Translations under genes and position numbers: made by a program | The notes under the pieces: generated by a model | The model's input: the letters and a program-made list of their open reading frames with translations, nothing else | The model's database searches: none | What the model was told of the DNA's origin: nothing | Part shown: positions 13,386 to 28,901 of the stretch, piece after piece | Numbering within the stretch: the stretch's first letter is position 1 | Layout of the letters: every line of letters begins with the position of its first letter | Assembly: GCA_040389905.1 (NCBI GenBank) | Contig: JAZJZK010000040.1 | Location: 1-41,938, forward strand | Length of the DNA: 41,938 nt | Origin: Gemmatimonadota bacterium | GTDB taxonomy: Bacteria > Gemmatimonadota > Gemmatimonadetes > Gemmatimonadales > Gemmatimonadaceae | Reading direction: 5' to 3'

Positions 13386-13486
13386 TAGGGGACAGGGGAG
13401 AGGAGCTGGGAGCTAGGGACTAGGTGCGAGGAGCTAGGAACAGACGTCCTTCCTCATGGCTTCTAGCCCCAAGGACCTTGTCCCCT
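13386..13486. repeat. Second copy of the heptamer inverted-repeat element
   Basis: AGGGGAC AGGGGAG AGGAGCT GGGAGCT AGGGACT ... GCTAGGAACAG ... CTAGCCCC ... TGTCCCCT. Shares GCTAGGAACAG and both termini with 5649-5784. Confidence 0.75.
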
Positions 13487-13526
13487 TGACATCCGGTTTC
13501 TACACATGTAAATCTACAACTGTAGA
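13486..13526 (+). promoter_or_regulatory. sigma70 promoter with two BlaI/MecI operators
   Basis: TTGACA at 13486-13491, 17-nt spacer, TAAATC at 13509. TACAcaTGTA at 13501-13510 and TCTACAacTGTAGA at 13513-13526 match the BlaI/MecI/CopY consensus TACAnnTGTA. Confidence 0.85.
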
Positions 13527-13548
13527 GCCACCCGCGCGGAGCCACGAC

Positions 13549-13941
13549 ATGACCGACCAGCATCAACTCACCGATCTCCAGACCTCCATCCTCCGCCTGT
13601 TGTGGCAACGCGGAGAGGCCACCGTCGCGGAAATCTGGGAAGAACTGTACGCGGAACGCGGGCTTGCCCAGACGACGATCGCCACCATCGTGGCACGCCT
13701 CCAGCGCCGGGGCATTCTCGCCCGTCGCAACAAGGACCGGCAGTTCGTCTACCGGCCGCTCATCACCGAGGCCGATGTCCAGCATTCGATGGTGAAGGAA
13801 CTCACCGAGCGCCTCTTCGACGGCGATGTCACCGCATTGGTCAGCCACCTCATCGCCGACCGCGACATGACACCCGGTGATCTCGAACGCGTACGGCAGA
13901 TGATCGAGAACGCATCGCCCGGCAAAGGGGAAGCCAAATGA
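13549..13941 (+). CDS. BlaI/MecI/CopY family transcriptional repressor
   Basis: LTDLQ..IL..LW..GEATV.EI...TTIATIVARL..RG...FVYRP...FDG pattern; GGAG RBS. Confidence 0.93.
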   Translation: MTDQHQLTDLQTSILRLLWQRGEATVAEIWEELYAERGLAQTTIATIVARLQRRGILARRNKDRQFVYRPLITEADVQHSMVKELTERLFDGDVTALVSHLIADRDMTPGDLERVRQMIENASPGKGEAK

Positions 13942-16013
13942 CGACGTCCATTTCCGCCGCCGCACTCGCGTGGTTGCTCACGTATGCGGTGCACAGCACG
14001 GTCCTGCTCGGTTCTGCCCTGCTTCTAGTGCGCGTTCGGCGGTGGACGCCGGCAGCGGCCGAGATTCTGTGGAAGACGGCGATGGTTGGCAGCATTCTCA
14101 CGGCCACTCTTCAGCTTCAGCTCGATGTCCGGCCGGCTGGAACAGTCTCGCTCGTGAAGTCACCGGCGGCGACGGCCTCGGCAAAGACGCCTTCGAGCGA
14201 CGAACATGTGTCCGCCGCGCAGGCCGACGAAGAGCCCGTGGGCTTGCCCGAACTCGCGAAGCGTTCGGACCCCTCCGTTTCCTTCCACGCCGCAAATAAC
14301 CCGCCCACCACGGCCAGTGCGACCGGTGCTTCGGCGTCATTCGTGGTCGTTGCGGTATGGGCGACGATCGCGCTATTGCTCGCCGTTGCCTTCGGCGCGC
14401 GTCGGCTCGTCCTTGTCGGTCGCCTCGGTGACCGCCGCGCGGTGCATGACGGCCGCATCATCGAAATCCTGTCCGAGTTGTCGCGCGATACCGGGTTGTC
14501 CGGCACTCCGCGGTTAACGACCACCGTCAGTATCTCCAGCCCGGTCGCGCTGGGCATTCGTGAGATCTGCATTCCGGAGTCGGCGCTCACGGAACTCGAC
14601 GTCGAGCAACAGCGTAGCATGTTGGCGCATGAGCTCGCGCACCTTGCGCGCCGCGATCCGCTGTGGCTCGTGCTCGCGAGCATCATCGAACGCGTGTTCT
14701 GGATTCAACCACTCAATCGCGTCGCGCGGCGACAAATCGCCACGGCCGCCGAATATCTCTGTGACGACTGGGCGGTGCATCGCACCGGTTCGGGACTCGC
14801 CCTGGCCCGCTGCCTCGCGCAGGTGGCTGAATGGATTCAGGCCTCACCACTTGGCGTGCCGGTATCCGGTATGGCTGAAGAGCGTTCCCTTCTCGTATCT
14901 CGCGTCTCTCGCCTCCTGGAGGACAGAATGCCAAGCACCGCCTCACGTCGCGCCCTCGTGCTCGGCGCAATCGCCATGCTGCTTGGAACCGTCGTGCTGG
15001 TGCCGAGTGTGTCTGGAAAGACAGCGCCCGATCGTACCCTCGATGACCAGCGGCCGTCGGCATCCGAAGCTGTTATTACGCGTGGGCCGACCGGTTCGGA
15101 CGCGCCGGATGATGTCACGCCGATGCTCGCCGTCATGGAACACAAGCGGTCCGGTGTCCTGACTGCCGCCGACAGCGCCGTCGTCGTCGCACTCATCGCG
15201 CGCCTCAAGGACGAAGATGCCGAGGTGCGCCAGGCCGCCGCCGAGGCGCTCGGCAAGCTCGAGGATGCGCGCGCCGTTCCAGGACTAATCGAAGCCCTCA
15301 AGGACCGTGACAAGCGCGTCCGGGCGAGCGCAGCGCAATCGCTCGGCCAGTTCAAGGACGGCCGCTCGATGAACGCGCTCGTCGCTCTGCTCAGCGATTC
15401 ATCGACCGAGGTCAAGCGCCAGGCGCTCGAAGCGCTCTCCGAGTTCGAAGAGGGTGTTCCCTCCGCAGGCATTGTGCGTTTGCTCGACGACCGTGATTCG
15501 GAGATCCGCCACAAGGCGGCACACCTTGTCGGGCAACTGCACGATCGCTCCGCGAGCGGCGCATTAGCGAAGCTTATTCGCGACTCCAATGCAGACGTCC
15601 GTAGCGCGGCCATCGAAGCGTTGAGTGAACTGCACGATGTGTCCGCCGGTTCCGCAATTCTCCCTGCGCTCGGCGACGTCGATGCCGATGTGCGGCAGCA
15701 GGCACTCAGCGCCTTGAGCGACCTCAAGACTCCGATCCCGGAAGCCACGCTGATCGCGCTGCTGCGCGACACCAGCCCCGATGTGCGCAGTCACGCGGCC
15801 GACCTCGCCGGCGAACGATCGGTGGTGGCCGCCATCCCGGCGCTCCGCCGCATGCTCGAGGACGCGAACGGAGATGTGCGGCAGAATGCCGTGTCGGCGT
15901 TGAGCAACATTGCTGACGCGGCCGCACACGATGCGTTGCGCGCGGCTCTTAACTCGAAGGATCCCAAGGTGCGCCGCGCCGCTGTCGAGGCGCTCGGTGA
16001 GCGGAGGCAATGA
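13938..16013 (+). CDS. M56 family (BlaR1-like) metallopeptidase with C-terminal HEAT repeats
   Basis: TM helices, SP..LG, LAHELAH (HExxH), W.QPL and EYLCDD motifs. A further TM segment is followed by about 9 PBS-lyase HEAT repeats (L.D.D.EVR.AA..ALG). Confidence 0.92.
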   Translation: MTTSISAAALAWLLTYAVHSTVLLGSALLLVRVRRWTPAAAEILWKTAMVGSILTATLQLQLDVRPAGTVSLVKSPAATASAKTPSSDEHVSAAQADEEPVGLPELAKRSDPSVSFHAANNPPTTASATGASASFVVVAVWATIALLLAVAFGARRLVLVGRLGDRRAVHDGRIIEILSELSRDTGLSGTPRLTTTVSISSPVALGIREICIPESALTELDVEQQRSMLAHELAHLARRDPLWLVLASIIERVFWIQPLNRVARRQIATAAEYLCDDWAVHRTGSGLALARCLAQVAEWIQASPLGVPVSGMAEERSLLVSRVSRLLEDRMPSTASRRALVLGAIAMLLGTVVLVPSVSGKTAPDRTLDDQRPSASEAVITRGPTGSDAPDDVTPMLAVMEHKRSGVLTAADSAVVVALIARLKDEDAEVRQAAAEALGKLEDARAVPGLIEALKDRDKRVRASAAQSLGQFKDGRSMNALVALLSDSSTEVKRQALEALSEFEEGVPSAGIVRLLDDRDSEIRHKAAHLVGQLHDRSASGALAKLIRDSNADVRSAAIEALSELHDVSAGSAILPALGDVDADVRQQALSALSDLKTPIPEATLIALLRDTSPDVRSHAADLAGERSVVAAIPALRRMLEDANGDVRQNAVSALSNIADAAAHDALRAALNSKDPKVRRAAVEALGERRQ

Positions 16014-17269
16014 CCATGCGCCGCGCCACCAAGATTCTCGTCTCGACGCTTTTCGGCGCTGGAGCGCTCGTCGCGGGCGTTCGGTTGAGTAGTGCCTCGA
16101 CGTTCTCCAATTCTTCGAACGACGATGACGAACGGCATGCCGGCCCCGATTCCGCACGCGTCGCCATGATGTTGGACGCCGTCGGCAGGGCGGACCCGCT
16201 CGTCTGCGAACTGATCGCCGACCAACTCGGCAACTTCTGGTACGGGCATGAGCGTTCGGGAATCGGAAGACTCTCGGACGCGAAGACATCATTGGATGCA
16301 GCGAAGGATTCGATCGGCGGACGAGTCTCCGAGCCTCGCGCCATCCAGCGATTGACCACGGAACTCGCAAACCCGAACGCGTGTGTACGTCGTGTCGCGA
16401 GCAAGATGCTCGGCCACAGCGCGATCACGAATGAGAGAATCGGTGCGCTGCTCGCGGATGCGTCGCCTGTCGTGCGTGAGGCGGCAGCGTTGACAGCCGG
16501 CGTCGCCGAGCGGCACGAGTTGACGACAGCGCTGGTGAATGCGCTCGGCGACCGGTCTCCTGCCGTGGCGGCCATGTCGGCGTGGGCGCTCGGTGAAACT
16601 GAAGATCGTGCGGCGTTTTCGGCGCTCGTGAAGTCAGCACGGAGCGGTGAAATACGCTCCCGCGCGGCCGCGATCTGGGCGCTCGGTCAACTCGAAGACG
16701 ACCGCGCGGTCCCAGTCGTGCTCCCCGCGCTCGGTGACGCCGATGCCGGCATTCGTGCGATTGCGGCGGAGGTCCTCGGGAAGTTCGAGAATGCGGAAAG
16801 TGTGTTGCCGATCGAACGGCTGTTGGCCCGAGACACGGATGCGTCGGTCCGAGTTGCCGCAGCGGAAGCACTCGGAGAACTGAGTGCTCCCACCTCCGCG
16901 GCGGCGCTTGGCCGCGCACTCGAAGACAGCGATGTCCGCGTACGCCGCAGCGCAGCGAGCGCACTCGCGGACCTCGACGACCTGCACACGGCGCCCCCAG
17001 AGTTGGTGAAAGCGTTGTCGTCGCCTGACAAGGTATTACGACGTCGCGCCGCGCACGCGCTCTGCGAGATCTCTGATCCCGCCACTGTCCAGGCATTGAT
17101 CGGACTGCTCGACGATCCCGACGCAGAGTTGAGGAAGAATGCCATCGAGAGTCTCGGGAACATTGGCAATCCAGCCGCTGTGTCGGGGCTCTCGCGTGCA
17201 CTGAACGACAAGGATCCTCAGGTCAGGAAGGCTGCCGTCGAGGCGCTCGGAGAGATGAAAAAGGATTGA
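16010..17269 (+). CDS. Exported HEAT-repeat protein
   Basis: Basic N-terminus plus hydrophobic signal, then about 10 HEAT repeats. ATGA overlap with the upstream gene. Confidence 0.88.
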   Translation: MTMRRATKILVSTLFGAGALVAGVRLSSASTFSNSSNDDDERHAGPDSARVAMMLDAVGRADPLVCELIADQLGNFWYGHERSGIGRLSDAKTSLDAAKDSIGGRVSEPRAIQRLTTELANPNACVRRVASKMLGHSAITNERIGALLADASPVVREAAALTAGVAERHELTTALVNALGDRSPAVAAMSAWALGETEDRAAFSALVKSARSGEIRSRAAAIWALGQLEDDRAVPVVLPALGDADAGIRAIAAEVLGKFENAESVLPIERLLARDTDASVRVAAAEALGELSAPTSAAALGRALEDSDVRVRRSAASALADLDDLHTAPPELVKALSSPDKVLRRRAAHALCEISDPATVQALIGLLDDPDAELRKNAIESLGNIGNPAAVSGLSRALNDKDPQVRKAAVEALGEMKKD

Positions 17270-19422: not shown

Positions 19423-19679
19423 GTAGTGTAGATGGCTCGCGGCAGATGAGGTAGTAGCGCGTTCATTGCGCGAACCGAGTGCTGCACCGGTGCTACAGAG
19501 TGCGGCGTGGTCCCGGCAGGACGCATCCCAAATTGCCGCGCAGCGCGCGAGCACACCGTATAAGACGTTTATTCGCAATGACTTAGTCCGTGCGCATCAG
19601 CGTCAGTTTGAACGTGTGGCCTTGGCACTGCTTCTTGCAATGCATGAGCCCGCAGCACTCCCACACACAATCCCGATTC

Positions 19680-20339
19680 ATGAGAATTCGCAGCTTCTTG
19701 GCCGCCGCCGGCTTGTTCACTGCGACGTCGCAGCTTCACGCACAGACGGCCTTCATCGCGTCTGAGGGAGCATTCGGGACGCCAGCGGGCTATCTGCACT
19801 GGGTAGACAAGGGTCCCGAGTATACCGTCGTCTCCAACCCATTCACGATTGCCGCCACGGGTATCAGCAACACCGCCACGGTGTGGAAAGCGGGTGGCAC
19901 GTTTCAGCGGCTGTCGAACCAGAATTCGTGGGGCGGGAACTTCGCGCCGCTCGAGCCGCTGCTCTACAACGCGTCGGGCGATCCGATGCACTTCGACTTC
20001 GCCAATGCGATCCACCAATTCGGCCTCCAGATCAATTCGGATCAACCGATCGATGTTCCGTGGAGTGCGTCGATCTCAGCGTACGATTTCTCGAACACGC
20101 TGCTCGGGACCTTCTCGGCGTTCGGGGTGAGGACCGATTCGTTCGACGACACAGCGCTCTTTCTCGGCGTCGGGAGCTCGACGAACATCTATCACGTGGT
20201 CGTCAGCACGAACGCCGACTTCGTCGTCTCCGACGTGAGTCTGGATGCCGCAACCGAGACGACGCCGGAGCCGGCGTCGCTGGTGTTGCTCGCCACCGGC
20301 ATCGGTGCGATTGCATTCCTGAGACGCCGTCGGGCCTGA
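19680..20339 (+). CDS. PEP-CTERM sorting-domain protein
   Basis: Signal peptide MRIRSFLAAAGLFTATSQLHA. C-terminus TTPEPASLVLLATGIGAIAFLRRRRA is a PEP motif, TM segment and basic tail. Confidence 0.92.
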   Translation: MRIRSFLAAAGLFTATSQLHAQTAFIASEGAFGTPAGYLHWVDKGPEYTVVSNPFTIAATGISNTATVWKAGGTFQRLSNQNSWGGNFAPLEPLLYNASGDPMHFDFANAIHQFGLQINSDQPIDVPWSASISAYDFSNTLLGTFSAFGVRTDSFDDTALFLGVGSSTNIYHVVVSTNADFVVSDVSLDAATETTPEPASLVLLATGIGAIAFLRRRRA

Positions 20340-22261: not shown

Positions 22262-22669
22262 CTACTTACATGCCTGCTGCGCCCGCGCGCTGTCTGCCCG
22301 CACGAACAGCCCCTGAACGCTGCGACGCATGCGTTGCATGCCGCCGTCCTCCGTCACTTCGTCTGTTACGAGGACTCCCGTCGCGCCGACTGATCCGGCG
22401 CGCGCGCGCAATGCGAGTTCCGCCGCTTCCGCCTCTTCCGGGCTCGTCACGCGAATCGGTGCGTCCGGCGGCGGAACGCGCAGCGTGTCGTACGGCGTCG
22501 GCACCTGACTCTTGTCGGTAAAGACGCGAACACCCTTGGCGCACACGGGCGGCCGGCCAGGTGCGGGGTTCGCCGCCGAGGCGCCCTGCGCCGAGGACGA
22601 TGCGCCCGCCGCGACGGTGACGAGCGACGCGATCGCGACCGCGCGCAAGGATCGAATGATGGACGACAT
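22262..22669 (-). CDS. Small secreted protein (YbjQ/RcsF/DUF4156-like LR..A...GA.GV motif)
   Basis: Signal peptide, two Cys (VCAKG, QACK), and LRARAGSVGATGVLV. GGAG upstream. Confidence 0.7.
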   Translation of the reverse strand: MSSIIRSLRAVAIASLVTVAAGASSSAQGASAANPAPGRPPVCAKGVRVFTDKSQVPTPYDTLRVPPPDAPIRVTSPEEAEAAELALRARAGSVGATGVLVTDEVTEDGGMQRMRRSVQGLFVRADSARAQQACK

Positions 22670-22694
22670 GGTAGAGGCTCCGTGGTGAGGTGAA

Positions 22695-22800
22695 TGTCCA
22701 ACAACTGTTGGACACGGCCGCCGGGCCGATGGTTTCCGCGGAAACGTTCACGCCGGTGGCTGTGTCCAACGATCGTTGGATATCCAACAACTGTTGGATG
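22695..22800. promoter_or_regulatory. Divergent ECF-like promoter pair with three palindromic operators
   Basis: Operators TGTCCAACAacTGTTGGACA (22695-22714), TGTCCAACGatCGTTGGATA (22763-22782) and TATCCAACAacTGTTGGATG (22781-22800). The central palindrome GTTTCCGCGGAAAC (22732-22745) gives GGAAAC-N16-GTGTCCAAC on both strands. Confidence 0.8.
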
Positions 22801-22829
22801 TTGCCCGTCACCAGCCCCGAGCCTGCCCC

Positions 22830-25800
22830 ATGTCACCACGTCGTCGCGCACTCACATGTGCCGCCTGCCTGCTTGTCCTTCCCATGGCCGGATCGCTCGC
22901 GCAGGTGGCGACACCGGCCGCAACCTCACGCCACGAGATCGTGCGTGGAACGGTGCTCGATGCCGCGGCGAAGCCCATTGCCGGCGCGGAGATCATCGCC
23001 ACCCGCGCGCCGGACCGTGCGTTCAAGTCCAGCACGACCGATGCCGCTGGTCGCTACAGCATCGATTGGCCCGATGGCACCGGAGACTATCTGATCCACG
23101 CCACGGCCGTCGGGTTTCAGACCTTCCGGAGGCGGGTCACGCGCACGGGATCGGACACAGTGCTCGTCCTTGATATTGTGCTCGCACCCATCGTGAAGGC
23201 CCAGGAACTCGCGCCGGTGGTTACCACTGCGCGCAAGCCGAAACCGACGCGCGATCCCGCGTTCGGCGCTGACGTTGGTGCGGCGGAGCAGCTGTCGGGA
23301 GGAATGATCGGGAAGCTCGCGCCCGACATCGCGGGCGACCTGAGCGCGATCGCCGCAACGTTGCCAGGCGTCATGCCGGTCAGTGGCGGCGTATCCGTGC
23401 TCGGACTCGGCGCCGACCAGAACAGCACGACGCTCAATGGGATGGCTTTCCCCGGCGGTGACGTACCGAGGGATGCGAACACGCGCGTTCGCGTATCGAC
23501 GTCGGCATATGATCCGGTCCGCGGTTGGTTCAGCGGCGCCAGCACGAACGTCGAGCTCGCACCGGGCAATCTCTTTGGTGCGCGTCGTTCGCATGTGACC
23601 CTCGACGCGCCCGCGCTCCAGGTCAACGACCCCGTATCCGCTCACCTCGGCCAGCGATTCACCAGCGGCCAACTCAATGTCGGGGAGGATGGCGAGCTTG
23701 TCGAGGACAAGTGGTACTACAACATGGGCATTCAGGGCGGACGGCGAACGGCACCTGTCAGTTCGCTCGTCTCCGCGGATGCCGCGCTGCTGTCGCACGC
23801 AGGACTCGCGAGCGATTCCGCCGCGCGCCTCCAGTCGCTTGCGCTCGCGCGCGGAATTCCAGCGTCGACGAGTGCCGCGTCGTCGGCCGCCATCACCGAC
23901 AATATTTCGTTTCTCGGACGTTTCGATCACACGCCCTTTGATCCCGTAACCCTGGGCGCGGCCAAGACGACGTGGGGAGTCACGGCCTACGGCCGGCTCG
24001 CGCGGACGAGCGCCCTCGGGGCCTCACCCGCCGCGACGCCGGCGCACGGCGGCGAGACCGCACAGCACACCGGCTCGATTCAAGCGCAGTATTCGACCTT
24101 CTTCGGGCGCGACTTTCTCGCAGACGTTCGCAGCAATCTCTCGCTCGTGCGCAATCGGACGACGCCCTACCTCGCGCTTCCCGATGCGCGCGTGCGCATT
24201 GAATCGAGTCTCGACGATGGCGCAGGCGCGGTGGCGCTTGGCGAAGTCGGCGGAAACAGTAGCCTCGACGCGGATACGAAAGCGTGGACGTGGGAAAACG
24301 CCGCCGACGTGCAGTTCTACGCCACCAATACTCCCGCGCATCGCGTGAAGCTCAGTGGCGACGTTCGGCTCGATGGTTATAGCCAGACGCTCGCGCCAAA
24401 CCGTCTTGGGACGTTCTTCTATAACTCCCTCGCCGACTTCGGTGCGAATGCACCGGCGTCGTACTCGCGCACGCTGACTGCGCCTGCGCGCGACGGGGCG
24501 GAGTGGAATGCCTTCATCGCCGTCAGTGACTTGTGGCGGGCGAGCCCCAGCTGGCAGCTCCTCTATGGTGCGCGCATCGAAGGCAATGCGTTCACGAATG
24601 CGCCGGCCCGCAACGTCGCGATCGAGCAGCGATTCGGCGCGCGAAACGATTTCACGCCCGCGGGGGTTCATGTCAGTCCGCGTTTCGGCTTCACGTACAA
24701 TCGTTCCGCACAAATCCGGAACGGCGTCATGGATGGAGCGCTTGGCAGATTCACGAGCACGACCCCTGGCGTCCTCCGGGGAGGGTTCGGCGAGTTCCGC
24801 GGTCTGACGCAAGCGACAGCACTCGCGAACGCGCTCGTGAGCACGGGGCTCGAAGGGACACAGTCGCGGTTGAGCTGTATTGGCAGTGCTGTTCCGCGCC
24901 CGGATTGGCAGGCGTATGTAAACAACGCTGGCGCGATCCCGACCACGTGTGTCGGGGGCGCAACCTCGTTCGTTGATGCGGCGCCGAACGTAGCCTTGGT
25001 CGATCCCTCCTGGAGCGCAGCACGGAGTTGGCGCGGCAACGTTGCGTGGAGCTCGATCGTCGGGATGTTCAACTATACGCTGGAGGGTCTGTATTCCCTC
25101 AACCTCGGTCAGCCGGGGAGCATCGATCTGAATTTCGGCAATGCTGCCCGATTCACCGTAGCGGACGAGGGACGCCCGGTCTTCGCCGATGCGAGCGATA
25201 TCGTGCCCGGAACCGGGCTCGTGAGCGGTACTCGGGCGCGACTCGCCAGCGAGTTCGGCCGCGTTACCAGTATTCGCAACGATGGGCGCTCGATCAGCAA
25301 GCAGGCGACGCTCACGGTGTCTCCCAACTTGTTTGGCGGAGGGTTCTCGAACTTCTACGTCGCGGCGGCGTACACCCTCTCATCGATCCAGGCGCAACAG
25401 CGTGGTTTCGACGCATCGACCTTTGGTTCTCCTATGGAACGCGCATGGACTCGCGGCATCTTCGATGCGCGTCATCAGCTCTTGTTGCAGGGAGGTTATA
25501 CCACTCCCTATGGCGCGACGTTCACGGTGCTCGGCCGATTGCAGTCTGGCCTCCCCTTCACGCCGATGATCGCGAGCGACGTGAATGGCGACGGCCTGCC
25601 GAACGACCGCGCGTTCATTCCGGATCCTGCGCACGCGAGGGATGCGTCCGTCGCGCAAGGACTGAACAGGCTGCTCTCGTCCGCATCGCCGTCGGTTCGC
25701 GGCTGCCTCACATCTCAGTTCGATCGCGCTGCGGCTGCAGCGAGCTGCGAGGGACCGTGGACGTCCACGCTCAACGCGCGCCTCGGAATCGCTGGCAACG

Positions 25801-26531
25801 GAACGCGTCTGAGCCGCAGAGTGAACATCGGCATCAATTTCTCCAATCCTCTCGGTGGCATCGACCAGTTGCTGCACGGTGCGGACGGTCTACGTGGCTG
25901 GGGCGCACTGGCAACGCCTGATCCCGTGTTGTTCAGCGTGCGTGGCTGGGATGCTGCCAACAACCGCTTTCAGTATGCCGTGAATCCGCGCTTCGGTGAC
26001 AGCCGGCCGACGTCCACGACGCTTCGCGCTCCTTTTCGCATAACCCTTGATGTGGCTATCGACATCGGCCGACCGGTAGAGGAACAGCAAGTGGATCGCT
26101 GGCTTCGTCCTGGTCGCAATGGCCGCGGTGGCCTCAAGGCCGATGGGCAGGAGTTGAAGCGGCGCTATGACAGGAACGTGCCCGACCTTTTTGCGATCAC
26201 GCTGCAGCAGGCGGACTCGCTCCTGCTCTCGCGCGAGCAGGTGGATACGCTGCAGAAGGTTCGGGCAGCTTACCGGGTGCAGATGGATTCAGTGTGGACC
26301 TCGCTGGCGAATCATCTCGCGAACCTGCCGGACAGCTACGATCCACACGACGCGTACACGCGCGCGTCCGGGACAATCGATGGCGCGTGGGAACTGACGC
26401 GGGATGTCCTCAAGCGATCGCTGCCAGGGATACTCAATCCCGTTCAGATTCAACTCCTGCCCAGTGTCGTGAAGACGTTGCTGGATTCGACGGGCCCGCT
26501 GCGGATTCGAATCTTCATCACGGGCGGGTGA
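22830..26531 (+). CDS. Carboxypeptidase-regulatory-like domain / TonB-dependent-receptor-like outer-membrane protein with C-terminal helical extension
   Basis: Signal peptide, VRGTVLD...PIAGA...TTDAAGRY domain, plug-like segment (NSTTLNG), long amphipathic barrel (SPRFGFTY, SGLPFTP..DVNGDG..ND), then an alpha-helical tail of about 150 aa. Confidence 0.85.
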   Translation: MSPRRRALTCAACLLVLPMAGSLAQVATPAATSRHEIVRGTVLDAAAKPIAGAEIIATRAPDRAFKSSTTDAAGRYSIDWPDGTGDYLIHATAVGFQTFRRRVTRTGSDTVLVLDIVLAPIVKAQELAPVVTTARKPKPTRDPAFGADVGAAEQLSGGMIGKLAPDIAGDLSAIAATLPGVMPVSGGVSVLGLGADQNSTTLNGMAFPGGDVPRDANTRVRVSTSAYDPVRGWFSGASTNVELAPGNLFGARRSHVTLDAPALQVNDPVSAHLGQRFTSGQLNVGEDGELVEDKWYYNMGIQGGRRTAPVSSLVSADAALLSHAGLASDSAARLQSLALARGIPASTSAASSAAITDNISFLGRFDHTPFDPVTLGAAKTTWGVTAYGRLARTSALGASPAATPAHGGETAQHTGSIQAQYSTFFGRDFLADVRSNLSLVRNRTTPYLALPDARVRIESSLDDGAGAVALGEVGGNSSLDADTKAWTWENAADVQFYATNTPAHRVKLSGDVRLDGYSQTLAPNRLGTFFYNSLADFGANAPASYSRTLTAPARDGAEWNAFIAVSDLWRASPSWQLLYGARIEGNAFTNAPARNVAIEQRFGARNDFTPAGVHVSPRFGFTYNRSAQIRNGVMDGALGRFTSTTPGVLRGGFGEFRGLTQATALANALVSTGLEGTQSRLSCIGSAVPRPDWQAYVNNAGAIPTTCVGGATSFVDAAPNVALVDPSWSAARSWRGNVAWSSIVGMFNYTLEGLYSLNLGQPGSIDLNFGNAARFTVADEGRPVFADASDIVPGTGLVSGTRARLASEFGRVTSIRNDGRSISKQATLTVSPNLFGGGFSNFYVAAAYTLSSIQAQQRGFDASTFGSPMERAWTRGIFDARHQLLLQGGYTTPYGATFTVLGRLQSGLPFTPMIASDVNGDGLPNDRAFIPDPAHARDASVAQGLNRLLSSASPSVRGCLTSQFDRAAAAASCEGPWTSTLNARLGIAGNGTRLSRRVNIGINFSNPLGGIDQLLHGADGLRGWGALATPDPVLFSVRGWDAANNRFQYAVNPRFGDSRPTSTTLRAPFRITLDVAIDIGRPVEEQQVDRWLRPGRNGRGGLKADGQELKRRYDRNVPDLFAITLQQADSLLLSREQVDTLQKVRAAYRVQMDSVWTSLANHLANLPDSYDPHDAYTRASGTIDGAWELTRDVLKRSLPGILNPVQIQLLPSVVKTLLDSTGPLRIRIFITGG

Positions 26532-26569
26532 TACTCGTTTGTCGTCCTGAACCGAGCGAGGCCATGCGC

Positions 26570-27679
26570 CTACCGAATCATCACTCGCACTTGCTTCGTA
26601 TGCACGGTCACCGTGCTGTCGATGTCGACGAGGCGCCCAACTTCATGCGCACGGTTCGTTGCGTTGCGCATGATGTCCGCCGGAGCGGCATCGAGCGCAG
26701 GGGCTGGGGAAACGACCGGGAGCAACGAGAGGCCGGCCGCGAGCGCTCCGATGGCGACGAATGCATTGCGGCGTGTTGCCGTGTCGCGCTCGTCGAGCCC
26801 CGCAATGCGCGTAGCGCGTGCCACGAGCGGGGAACCGTCGTACGCCGTTGCCGCGCCACGAAGCGACGAACGCGCATCGAATGGCGACGCAAGCAGCGCG
26901 AGCGCGCCGATCAATCCCTGGCGATCATGCGTGCGGCGGACTGCTGCTTCATCACAGATCAACTCCACGTCGCGCCGAAACTCGCGCGCGACGAGAAAGA
27001 TGAGCGGTTGAAATGCCGACACCGCCGTAACGACCTCGACGAACGCGAACCAGTGCGGGTCCTTGCGCTGAAGATGCGCCACCTCGTGGGCGATCAAGGT
27101 GTCCCGGTGCCGAGTCGAAAACTCCCGGGCCACGACACTCGGCAAGCAAATCTCCGACGCGCCGAGTGCCACTGGAGATGGAAGGTCGCTGGCGATGGAC
27201 AGGTTGATCGACGGGTCGGCGACACCAGGGAATGCACGCCTGCCAACGAGCGCGCGCGCCAGTGCTCGGCGCCGGCCAACCAGGCGTGCTGACGCGAGTG
27301 CAATGGCGACAAGTGCCACGCTGATCACTGCGACCGCGAGCGCGAGCGCCACGGGGTCATCGAGTTGCTTTATGATTCGCTCCCCCGCTCCGTCGTCGAG
27401 CACGCGAACCATGAGACGGCGCCCGGGAAGGTGTATCATGCTGGCGCGTCTCGCGACGTCCGACAGGTCGATGTTGAGGCGCTCGAAGGCTCCAACGCCG
27501 CCGCGGAGCGCGACGGACGTCGTCAGGAGGGGCGCCACGAATGCGGCCTTCCACAAAAGGTCTCGCTCCTGTGGCCGACGGAGCAGTCGACCGAGGAGCA
27601 GCGTCACCACGCAGGCGGCCGCACTGTGGCTCGCATACGTGAGCACGGTTGCCGAGACAGCGGTCAGGATCGCAGGCAT
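26570..27679 (-). CDS. M56 family (BlaR1-like) metallopeptidase, short form
   Basis: TYASHS...LLWK N-terminus homologous to the 13938 gene, SPVALG..EICLP, LIAHEVAH, FQPL, ELICD. Confidence 0.9.
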   Translation of the reverse strand: MPAILTAVSATVLTYASHSAAACVVTLLLGRLLRRPQERDLLWKAAFVAPLLTTSVALRGGVGAFERLNIDLSDVARRASMIHLPGRRLMVRVLDDGAGERIIKQLDDPVALALAVAVISVALVAIALASARLVGRRRALARALVGRRAFPGVADPSINLSIASDLPSPVALGASEICLPSVVAREFSTRHRDTLIAHEVAHLQRKDPHWFAFVEVVTAVSAFQPLIFLVAREFRRDVELICDEAAVRRTHDRQGLIGALALLASPFDARSSLRGAATAYDGSPLVARATRIAGLDERDTATRRNAFVAIGALAAGLSLLPVVSPAPALDAAPADIMRNATNRAHEVGRLVDIDSTVTVHTKQVRVMIR

Positions 27680-27680
27680 G

Positions 27681-28073
27681 CTACTTTCCTCCCTTCACGT
27701 CGCGCTCGAGCTGTCGGAGCAGCGTCACGAGCTTGTCCACATCACCGGACCGAACGTCGCTCGGGTCGAGCGCCAGCGCCCCGGCAAGACGCGGCTGCCC
27801 CACGAAGACCGCACCGAGTAGGCTGGCCATGCGCGAGCGCAGGACGGCTTGCTTTGGCACCGTGGCGCGGTAGACACCGGAACGCTCATCGATGTGATGC
27901 TTTACCAGCCCGCGCTGCTCCAGCCGCGACAAGAGCATGGCGATAGTCTTCCGCGTGATCGGACCTCGTTCGCTCAGGTGCTCGTGAATGGTGCCGATGG
28001 TCGCCTCACGCTCCGACCACAGGACACTCATGATCGTGAGTTGGAGGTCGGTGAGATCGCCGTAGTCGGGCAT
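27681..28073 (-). CDS. BlaI/MecI/CopY family transcriptional repressor
   Basis: ATG at 28073 gives MPDYGDLTDLQLTIMSVLW...ATI..I...KTIAMLLSRL..RG...VYRA; lies directly upstream of the M56 gene. Confidence 0.92.
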   Translation of the reverse strand: MPDYGDLTDLQLTIMSVLWSEREATIGTIHEHLSERGPITRKTIAMLLSRLEQRGLVKHHIDERSGVYRATVPKQAVLRSRMASLLGAVFVGQPRLAGALALDPSDVRSGDVDKLVTLLRQLERDVKGGK

Positions 28074-28103
28074 GCGGATGTCGGTGTAGGGGTGCGAGGC
28101 CGG

Positions 28104-28146
28104 AGGGTAACAGTCGTTGGACACACGCGGTGACCGAAACGTTTTA
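28104..28146 (-). promoter_or_regulatory. ECF-like promoter with degenerate operator upstream of the second blaI
   Basis: Minus strand reads TAAAAC-gtttcggtcaccgcgt(16 nt)-GTGTCCAACGacTGTTaccc, with the same geometry as the two promoters at 22.7 kb. Confidence 0.75.
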
Positions 28147-28166
28147 CCTTGCCCTGTGTGGCCGTC

Positions 28167-28901
28167 ATGAAAATGTACCTTCAATTCATCCGGAACATTC
28201 GCGCGCGGGGTCCCGATGTTCCCTTCATCGTGGACGCGTTCCGTCACGCAGTTTCGAGCCGATGGGATCTTGCTTCCGGTTCGAAGTTTTCGACCTTGTA
28301 TCGTCAGGTCCACGCGTACTCGATGTGCAGCAGCTTCCGACTCAGGTCACTGCGCGCCGCCGTGACTCGCGTCGTCGAGGCAGGCATTCCGGGAGCCATT
28401 GTCGAGTGTGGTGTTGCTCGCGGCGGCAGTGCGGCACTGATGGGACTTACCTTGCGCGAGCTCAGTGCGCGACGAGATATCTGGCTTTTCGATACCTTCG
28501 AGGGGCTACCCGCGCCAACGCGGGCCGACCCGGACTTCGACATTGCCGTGCCATACACCGGAACGTGTGTCGGAACGCTCGACGAGGTCGGCGAGCTATT
28601 TGCTCGGCTTGGTCTACAGGACGACGTGCATTTCGTGAAGGGATTGTTCCGCCACACGATTCCGTGCGCCGATACGGGGAACATCGCGGTTCTGCATATC
28701 GATGGCGACTGGTATGACAGCGTCAAGTCGTCGCTCGATCTTCTCTACGATCGTGTGTCACCCGGCGGACTGATTCAGTTCGACGATTTCGGGTTCTGGG
28801 CAGGGGCACGCAAGGCGGTGGAGGACTTCATGCGTGAGCGCGACATTCACACCGCGCTTCAGCACATCGATCATTCGGGACGTCTCCTCGTGAAACAATG
28901 A
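28167..28901 (+). CDS. TylF/MycF/NovP-family O-methyltransferase
   Basis: G.IVECGV.RGGS, FDTFEGLP, VKGLF..TIP, LHIDGDWYDS and DDFG.W.GA..AV motifs. Confidence 0.9.
   Translation: MKMYLQFIRNIRARGPDVPFIVDAFRHAVSSRWDLASGSKFSTLYRQVHAYSMCSSFRLRSLRAAVTRVVEAGIPGAIVECGVARGGSAALMGLTLRELSARRDIWLFDTFEGLPAPTRADPDFDIAVPYTGTCVGTLDEVGELFARLGLQDDVHFVKGLFRHTIPCADTGNIAVLHIDGDWYDSVKSSLDLLYDRVSPGGLIQFDDFGFWAGARKAVEDFMRERDIHTALQHIDHSGRLLVKQ

Follow-up and report, generated by a model that had tools for sequence, protein, structure and literature searches.

Predicted BlaI-type operators over extracytoplasmic function (ECF)-type promoters at a Gemmatimonadota envelope locus, and perfect operator copies inside genes

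The contig JAZJZK010000040.1 (positions 1 to 41,938 of the forward strand; NCBI GenBank assembly GCA_040389905.1) comes from a Gemmatimonadota bacterium of the family Gemmatimonadaceae, and this whole stretch of 41,938 nucleotides (nt) is called the window in the following. Between positions 22262 and 28146 it carries genes for a secreted protein, a TonB-dependent-receptor-like β-barrel, an M56 membrane metalloprotease and a repressor of the BlaI/MecI/CopY family. The initial annotation of this DNA had regarded the locus as a candidate self-contained envelope regulon in which three ECF-type promoters are each overlapped by a variant BlaI operator. Here the locus is described in its source genome, G000 (5.08 Mb, 63% guanine + cytosine (GC), 85% complete), and in related genomes, focusing primarily on the relationships between the repressor, its operator and the promoters. 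The four genes are as follows.

22262 to 22669, minus strand: secreted protein of 135 amino acids, with a Sec-type signal peptide (by inspection), a conserved pair of cysteines and 154 homologues.
22830 to 26531, plus strand: TonB-dependent-receptor-like β-barrel of 1233 amino acids, matching PF25183 and PF13620 (an N-terminal carboxypeptidase-regulatory-like domain).
26570 to 27679, minus strand: M56 membrane metalloprotease of 369 amino acids, PF05569 at 76.6 bits (cut-off 31), with HEVAH at residue 198 and ELICD at residue 239.
27681 to 28073, minus strand: BlaI/MecI/CopY-family repressor of 130 amino acids, PF03965 at 76.9 bits (cut-off 22.6), belonging to a variant clade with an xKT recognition helix (TRKTIAMLLSRL).

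The repressor has the PDB relatives 1p6r and 2g9w, and PDB sequence searches with the M56 protein and with the secreted protein found nothing. The M56 protein has no C-terminal penicillin-binding sensor domain, only about 45 residues following its last hydrophobic segment, and it scores 32.9 bits with NCBIfam blaR1 against 400, the protease part alone being matched. The barrel is modelled as a plugged TonB-dependent receptor (predicted local distance difference test, pLDDT, 90), and the Foldseek rows listed for it are TonB-dependent receptors throughout, with FusA (E 1e-21) as the best and YddB at E 2e-20; its family has four members in G000 and is present in 52 of 55 genus genomes. Past the last strand of the barrel comes a conserved helical domain some 155 residues long (window 26064-26531), which is unusual for outer-membrane barrels; the identification of this domain with Spy/CpxP was rejected as a lead only (LTXXQ in 10% of the cluster, score 0.79; no Pfam match). 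The secreted protein has no Pfam match and no lipobox, its first cysteine being residue 43, well beyond the signal peptide, and thus the RcsF-type lipoprotein signal is absent. Its model (pLDDT 85) matches RcsF best (Z 5.8, root-mean-square deviation 2.8, 66 aligned residues), and the top 13 structural rows belong mostly to the RcsF/YbjQ/DUF1471 fold group, with a best Z of only 5.8 and Foldseek E above 0.1; Atlas neighbours with YbjQ_1 (score 0.85-0.86) are a lead only. An RcsF/YbjQ/DUF1471-like fold is predicted at this modest Z.

The regulatory elements of the locus are located in two intergenic regions.

22697 to 22712: perfect operator TCCAACAACTGTTGGA, covering the predicted -10/start site in the promoter of the secreted protein; retained in orthologues.
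22711 to 22735, minus strand: predicted ECF promoter AAAC-N17-TGTC of the secreted protein; in orthologues AAC stands 17 nt from TGTC and the spacer sequence diverges.
22732 to 22745: back-to-back -35 elements of the two divergent promoters (GTTTCC-GC-GGAAAC).
22742 to 22766, plus strand: predicted ECF promoter AAAC-N17-TGTC of the barrel gene; the spacer is 17 or 18 in orthologues.
22765 to 22780: perfect operator TCCAACGATCGTTGGA, covering the predicted -10/start site in the promoter of the barrel gene.
22783 to 22798: second, tandem perfect operator in the 5' leader of the barrel gene.
28106 to 28121: degenerate autoregulatory operator (TCCAACGACTGTTACC, minus strand), with three mismatches, in the distal half.
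28120 to 28144, minus strand: predicted ECF promoter AAAC-N17-TGTC of blaI-M56; the spacer is 16-18 in 16 of the 23 clade members.

Three AAAC-N16-GTGTCCAAC sites are present as had been claimed, with AAAC starting at 22735 (minus), 22742 (plus) and 28144 (minus); the promoters had been placed correctly, with two surplus bases included at the 5' ends. The four palindromes were likewise confirmed, three perfect and the one at 28106-28121 degenerate. GTGTC does overlap the palindrome at each promoter but is not its first part, as the 16 bp include no more of GTGTC than its last two bases, and each promoter is indeed overlapped by an operator, while the third perfect copy (22783) has no promoter of its own. 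No tandem copy like this one was seen at those orthologous barrel promoters that were viewed, and the distal half-site of the blaI operator is degenerate in most close orthologues too. The arrangement GTTTCC-N2-GGAAAC was considered as the site of a separate factor and rejected, since orthologues lose its symmetry and spacing: one side reads GCAAC in genomes G033 and G025, and the gap is altered in locus L064.

Both motifs are real and far above chance. The genome scan that had been proposed gave four exact copies of AAAC-N16-GTGTCCAAC in G000, all with spacer 16, and none at 17 other spacers (8-25), the chance expectation per spacer being about 0.055 (33 GTGTCCAAC sites x 0.00166). Perfect TCCAAC-N4-GTTGGA, always of the form R..Y, occurs at 10 loci in G000 where 0.07 would be expected, the counts at other spacers being 0-2; six of these 10 palindromes are intragenic, and a complete fourth promoter and operator site is found on a separate contig (C2:77186).

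The promoter motif is not restricted to this locus. Upstream regions of G000, taken from a crude purpose-made gene caller (4168 genes), contain 23 MAAC-N16-KTGTC sites against 2-10 at other spacers, and the 26 promoter sites listed precede genes for a DegP-like protease, secreted and membrane proteins, a barrel paralogue (with the promoter plus a half-site only) and two ECF sigma factors, the names other than sigma being given by inspection. Furthermore, CAAC-N17-TGTC is located upstream of 28 of 30 ECF sigma loci (the best 30 of 57 matches), eight control spacers giving three matches altogether, and at the remaining two loci contig ends leave just 19 and 104 nt upstream. Among 53 oriented TGTC/CGTC-operator contexts, AAC lies 16-18 nt from TGTC in 35, of which 27 have 17, with diverging spacer sequence, and most of the 18 contexts without AAC are the antisense reading of the palindrome. 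The candidate sigma factor matches TIGR02937 above its cut-off. About half of the ECF sigma factors autoregulate and their promoter spacers are 16-18 nt, according to PMC7776599; the main text of PMC7826278, whose supplements may name the ECF group and motif, gave no match for Gemmatimonad or for these motifs, and the sigma factors are accordingly given no ECF group number. Consistent with the initial annotation, (A/C)AAC-N17-TGTC is therefore best regarded as an ECF-type promoter; from its occurrence at ECF sigma loci and, genome-wide, at envelope genes, its predicted reader is an ECF sigma factor widespread in Gemmatimonadota. The word self-contained, however, does not hold: the ECF genes with this promoter are located on contigs different from that of the locus, promoters of this class occur throughout the genome, and the fourth target is unlinked. 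Two ECF operons of G000, C30:49472-53378 and C7:325582-330438, consist of a sigma gene, an anti-sigma-like gene and further secreted proteins behind a conserved autoregulatory CAAC-N17-TGTC, and they are candidates for the general envelope-stress sigma system of the group.

The palindrome, in turn, follows one clade of BlaI proteins. In a tree of 38 BlaI rows, the 23 rows with an xKT helix form one clade with support 100/100, several metagenome rows being near-identical, so that the 23 represent fewer independent cases. Within 170 nt upstream of blaI, the variant site is found in 19 of the 23 by the strict pattern and in degenerate form in three more, but in none of the 15 other BlaI rows, 13 of which have TAC-RNNY-GTA instead. 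The variant clade thus carries CCAAC-RNNY-GTTGG, the canonical TACAnnTGTA box being found with the sister clade, though the palindrome shares the 16-bp length and the AC-RNNY-GT core with CopY/BlaI box geometry (PMC7253601). Attribution of the new specificity to one residue was rejected as unproven: xKT differs from the sister forms QTT/LTT, but Bacillus licheniformis BlaI has PKT, and the protein of G387 is without Arg.

The distribution of the two agrees. Variant blaI was found in 5 of 55 genus genomes, 5 of 400 other genomes of the order and 11 metagenome loci, and the combined promoter-operator pattern occurs in exactly those five genus genomes, which bears out the proposed link of the motif to blaI loci. 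Perfect palindromes are present in four of the five blaI-positive order genomes and in 20 of the 395 others, one copy each; the single genome with multiple copies among the 400 is the blaI-positive G387. A scan of the collection gave 26 stretches, and eight loci were examined: five regulon loci (including two duplicates, counted once) and three chance-like ones. L064, located through the motif alone, has variant blaI (81% identical) about 9 kb away, and the chance-looking matches L056 and L062 have no variant blaI. Carriers of the same locus with a taxonomy are Gemmatimonadales or Gemmatimonadaceae, with a patchy distribution. Synteny of the four genes had been suggested as a check, and their order is kept in G033, G025, G007 and L091; in G031 the halves are on separate contig ends. 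One unpublished genome, G012, counts once in the genus tallies and gives one row each in the PF00144 and tsaD comparisons described below, and no claim depends on it.

It might be objected that another protein, for example a chromosome-organising or mobile-element factor, reads the palindrome and that its association with blaI is hitch-hiking, because perfect copies lie inside housekeeping-type genes and because genome G008 has 14 copies and no variant blaI was found in it. This is very improbable, since BlaI proteins of 45-100% identity have the site at the promoter of their gene, as a tandem in G082 and G095, and since multiple copies among the 400 order genomes are confined to a blaI-positive genome as given above. 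Moreover, 46 of the 50 blaI-negative genus genomes are without a copy (three have one or two, and G008 has its 14), and one orthologous intragenic site is common to G008 and G000, in keeping with a blaI that G008 once had or that is missing from its assembly. TCCAAC-RNNY-GTTGGA is likely, from co-occurrence and the BlaI tree, to be the operator of the clade of BlaI 27681-28073, in agreement with the initial annotation.

The fourth complete site belongs to a gene outside the window.

G000 C2:77259-78620: PF00144 serine hydrolase of 453 amino acids, 184.8 bits with PF00144, an unlinked target with its site at C2:77186.

The hydrolase gene is followed by one for a PF01427 VanX/DdpX-like D-Ala-D-Ala dipeptidase. 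The alignment contains SxxK and YxN motifs (SNTK, YSN), and the protein scores 69.8 bits with NCBIfam bla_class_C against 415, with similarly low scores for D-aminopeptidase and AmpH; it is a hydrolase of the β-lactamase family for which β-lactamase activity is not claimed. Genes of this family with the site are also found in G387 (adjoining blaI-M56), in G316 (unlinked) and in L063, where the gene is divergent from blaI with the operator present and an imperfect -35, and the barrel is missing from those loci. Consequently, the PF00144 hydrolase is, on sequence comparison, the most widely shared target, and the earlier statement that the circuit controls outer-membrane components rather than a β-lactamase has to be withdrawn in that form, as a serine hydrolase with SxxK and YxN is the target shared by the largest number of lineages.

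This gene also separates operator from promoter. Homologues occur in 24 of 55 genus genomes; in the blaI-negative ones (20 loci in 19 genomes) AAC-N17-TGTC is present at seven of 20 loci and the operator at none, whereas promoter and operator are both present in G000, G025, G033 and G007, the four blaI-positive genus genomes in which the 5' end is intact (the 5' end in G031 lies outside its locus and was not counted). Barrel paralogues and homologues in blaI-negative genomes similarly have the ECF promoter without the operator. Conversely, the operator of G082, G210 and G095, whose BlaI proteins are 45-52% identical, accompanies divergent promoters of the TTGAC type that lack the ECF motif. 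Those distant members would suit a reading without any ECF promoter, in which a longer repressor site has AAC and TGTC as its flanks and transcription depends on the primary sigma factor, and at some sites TGTC does extend the palindrome symmetrically; nevertheless, this is extremely improbable, because the bipartite motif stands without the operator before the ECF genes and before the PF00144 and barrel homologues just mentioned. Many operator-free ECF promoters already read TGTCCA, so few changes convert an ECF promoter to a regulated one, and the operator was probably added to ECF promoters that existed beforehand, their -10 region (TGTC-C/T-A) supplying most of a half-site. As separate observations, the operator in G082 and G095 (L097:7236-8876 and L099:6255-7982) precedes a secreted protein of about 520-550 amino acids without a Pfam family at a TTGAC-type promoter, and blaI of both genomes looks leaderless.

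Sequence comparison thus establishes the anatomy, conservation and separability of the elements, as well as their co-occurrence with the blaI clade. With BlaI operators over ECF promoters, transcription would probably need an active ECF sigma factor and also the elimination of BlaI, for which the neighbouring M56 protease without a sensor domain is the likely agent. In the proposed circuit, an ECF sigma factor of the C30:52833 / C7:329851 type would recognise (A/C)AAC-N17-TGTC, with the start about 6-7 nt past TGTC, inside the operator, and a BlaI dimer on the operator would block initiation. An envelope signal would activate M56, which would cut BlaI as PetP does PetR, and the weaker, degenerate blaI site would permit basal synthesis, autoregulation and reset of the loop. 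The targets, namely the secreted protein, one receptor paralogue, blaI-M56 and the PF00144 hydrolase, would constitute a sub-regulon of a larger ECF envelope regulon, and the hydrolase plus the VanX/DdpX-like dipeptidase points to cell-wall or envelope stress. Of the AND gate originally put forward, two separable inputs per promoter are upheld by the PF00144 comparison, and relief by M56 proteolysis is deduced from the family.

A single input is the alternative: BlaI binds, but a ligand or another protease relieves it, or the ECF sigma factor is always active. M56 has no β-lactam sensor domain, and at least three ECF clades have the motif, one of which may be constitutively active. This is unlikely, however, as blaI adjoins M56 in every clade locus long enough for both, HExxH and ExxCD of M56 are intact, and sensor-less PetP degrades PetR (bioRxiv 2020.07.31.226407); in addition, both motif-bearing ECF genes of G000 are followed by a membrane anti-sigma-like gene (by inspection).

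Several points weigh against the two-input circuit. The spacer is 18 instead of 17 at seven of the 35 sites and 16 at one, and the three or more ECF clades with the same motif mean several candidate sigma factors, among them those encoded at C30:52833, C7:329851 and C7:157436. The blaI promoter of G387 has no operator (there is one before the next gene), and the blaI operator of G007 is degenerate only. G008 (84% complete) has its 14 perfect palindromes with no variant blaI by protein or family search; another protein might read them, or the blaI locus might be unassembled or lost. Genomes from a single genus do not count as independent cases. Activation by a member of the BlaI family is known as well, from PetR (bioRxiv 2020.07.31.226407), and promoter repression does not account for those six of the 10 perfect G000 sites that lie inside genes.

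The initial annotation knew of no described system with this layout, but two-input logic has precedents in fecA (FecI plus Fur) and in PetR/PetP; the following comparisons draw on passages of the cited texts. PetR/PetP of Synechocystis sp. PCC 6803 (bioRxiv 10.1101/2020.07.31.226407) also consists of a BlaI/CopY factor and an adjacent M56/M48 protease without a β-lactam sensor, in a Gram-negative host, with a small regulon and a non-canonical operator, but its operator is GAC-N5-GTC, its signal is copper, its targets are photosynthetic, PetR activates too, and an ECF promoter is not mentioned there. The BlaI/BlaR1, MecI/MecR1 and CopY systems (PMC4549145, PMC7593790, PMC7253601) share the family, the 16-bp operator with an AC-NN-GT core, autoregulation, a protease partner and a β-lactamase-superfamily gene among the targets. 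In contrast to these systems, the half-site here is TCCAAC-R, not TACA, there is no penicillin-binding sensor domain, the promoters are ECF-type, and the hydrolase is not a class C β-lactamase by the NCBIfam cut-off. Escherichia coli fecA (PMC9249621) has an ECF promoter under a repressor site, Fur covering -38 to -1, and encodes a TonB-dependent receptor; Fur, however, is global and ligand-controlled and FecI a dedicated local sigma factor, whereas here the sigma factor would be general and the repressor local and likely protease-controlled. The paralogous BlaI_0696 and BlaI_1845 of Clostridium thermocellum have their own non-canonical operators and small regulons, known from DNA affinity purification sequencing and electrophoretic mobility shift assays (PMC8457756), but these operators are GTCTAT / GACTAT repeats and an ECF overlay is not mentioned. 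In Mycobacterium tuberculosis, sigC is named among BlaI downstream genes (PMC9480834). In the literature searched, with most subscription journals and supplements outside the search, no account was found of a BlaI operator over ECF promoters or of TCCAAC-RNNY-GTTGGA. The parts are thus known separately, that is, BlaI with a sensor-less M56, paralogue-specific BlaI operators and a repressor over an ECF promoter; new, within the literature searched, are the BlaI-variant operator on ECF promoters and the intragenic operator copies, the latter being the most surprising and most testable addition.

The six intragenic perfect sites of G000 are spelled with rare synonymous codons. Forty-seven coding positions of this genome permit the site, and six are perfect against 0.11 expected from codon usage (Poisson P ~3e-9), an excess of about 50-fold, while permissive positions with one mismatch number none against 1.08 expected and the remainder are as expected. 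In the FtsI-like IPTFVGL peptide the site is perfect in G033 and five bases off in G000, and in orthologues encoding the same peptide the differences from the site are synonymous. The tsaD site, perfect in G000, is 2-7 bases off in 29 relatives, partly via amino-acid changes. Perfect copies away from promoters also occur in blaI-positive G031 (4), G033 (2), G025 (2), G387 (4), G450 (5) and G449 (6, of which four were fetched, all intragenic), and most of the copies viewed across these genomes are within reading frames; none occur in blaI-positive G007, G082, G210, G095, G316 and G451. The 14 perfect copies of G008 (loci L206-L219) all seem to lie within genes, and neither a variant blaI nor an orthologue of the regulon was found in this genome.

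Several causes were rejected. Template switching does not account for the perfection, as the R..Y centres are mostly non-complementary, the flanks are asymmetric, and palindromes of the type 6+RNNY+6 number 733 against 679 expected. Neither does local codon bias or foreign DNA, the flanks having a GC content at third codon positions of 0.70-0.83, nor a general BlaI trait, as seven patterns for the operators of other paralogues and six controls gave no intragenic perfect site in G000. A wider regulon is likewise dismissed, because the host genes have no common theme and the ECF promoter is present at none of nine sites checked in G449 and G450.

Repressors can be titrated by competing sites. 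Decoy titration or noise buffering is the preferred cause of the intragenic copies, albeit at low odds, and the 50-fold excess would need only very weak selection (2Ne*s near 4). It is conceivable, if on the whole rather doubtful, that a BlaI clade shifted its specificity so that its operator overlays ECF -10 elements, that a mobile, protease-controlled module captures single genes from a global ECF envelope regulon between lineages, and that host genomes gain intragenic copies by synonymous and some non-synonymous changes, selected as decoys titrating or buffering BlaI. The 14 copies in G008 count against decoys as well.

G000 has seven clear BlaI and seven M56 matches, and five other blaI genes have their own palindromes near TTGACA promoters. 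In the window, 13456-17269 is a second BlaI/M56 operon with a canonical TCTACAACTGTAGA near 13513-13526 at a TTGACA promoter, its M56 being fused to HEAT repeats and followed by another HEAT-repeat protein; blaI orthologues of this operon, having the canonical box, are frequent among the genus genomes. Less than 5 kb of G000, C23:76763-81511, accommodates an ECF sigma gene together with a blaI-M56 pair and one further blaI, and the two blaI genes have different palindromes. The locus itself is flanked by genes for a PEP-CTERM protein (19590-20339) and a TylF-family methyltransferase (28149-28901), the latter divergent from blaI with its annotated start adjoining the blaI -35. Two palindrome families of G000, TTCATTCCA-N4-TGGAATGA and GTGTATGGCAGTA-TGCCATA, are repeated, mostly intergenic and of extended symmetry, with the look of repetitive extragenic palindromic (REP)-type elements.

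G000 C12:25061, C14:131713, C14:224701, C25:85665, C51:38537, C62:939; C20:142, C20:27264, C20:39558: loci of the two REP-like palindrome families.

The regulon at this locus is real and conserved, and on present sequence grounds its promoters are likely to have two inputs. A nearly unstudied phylum thereby gains a predicted envelope-stress ECF promoter consensus, candidate sigma factors and a defined sub-regulon with a testable operator, and the PF00144 promoters are a natural experiment on adding a second input to an existing promoter. The intragenic copies are surprising, with six of the 47 permissive positions perfect, none one base off, and recurrence in other genomes with the repressor; if decoy selection were true, they would be a natural case of selected transcription-factor decoy sites, with repressor titration visible in synonymous codons.

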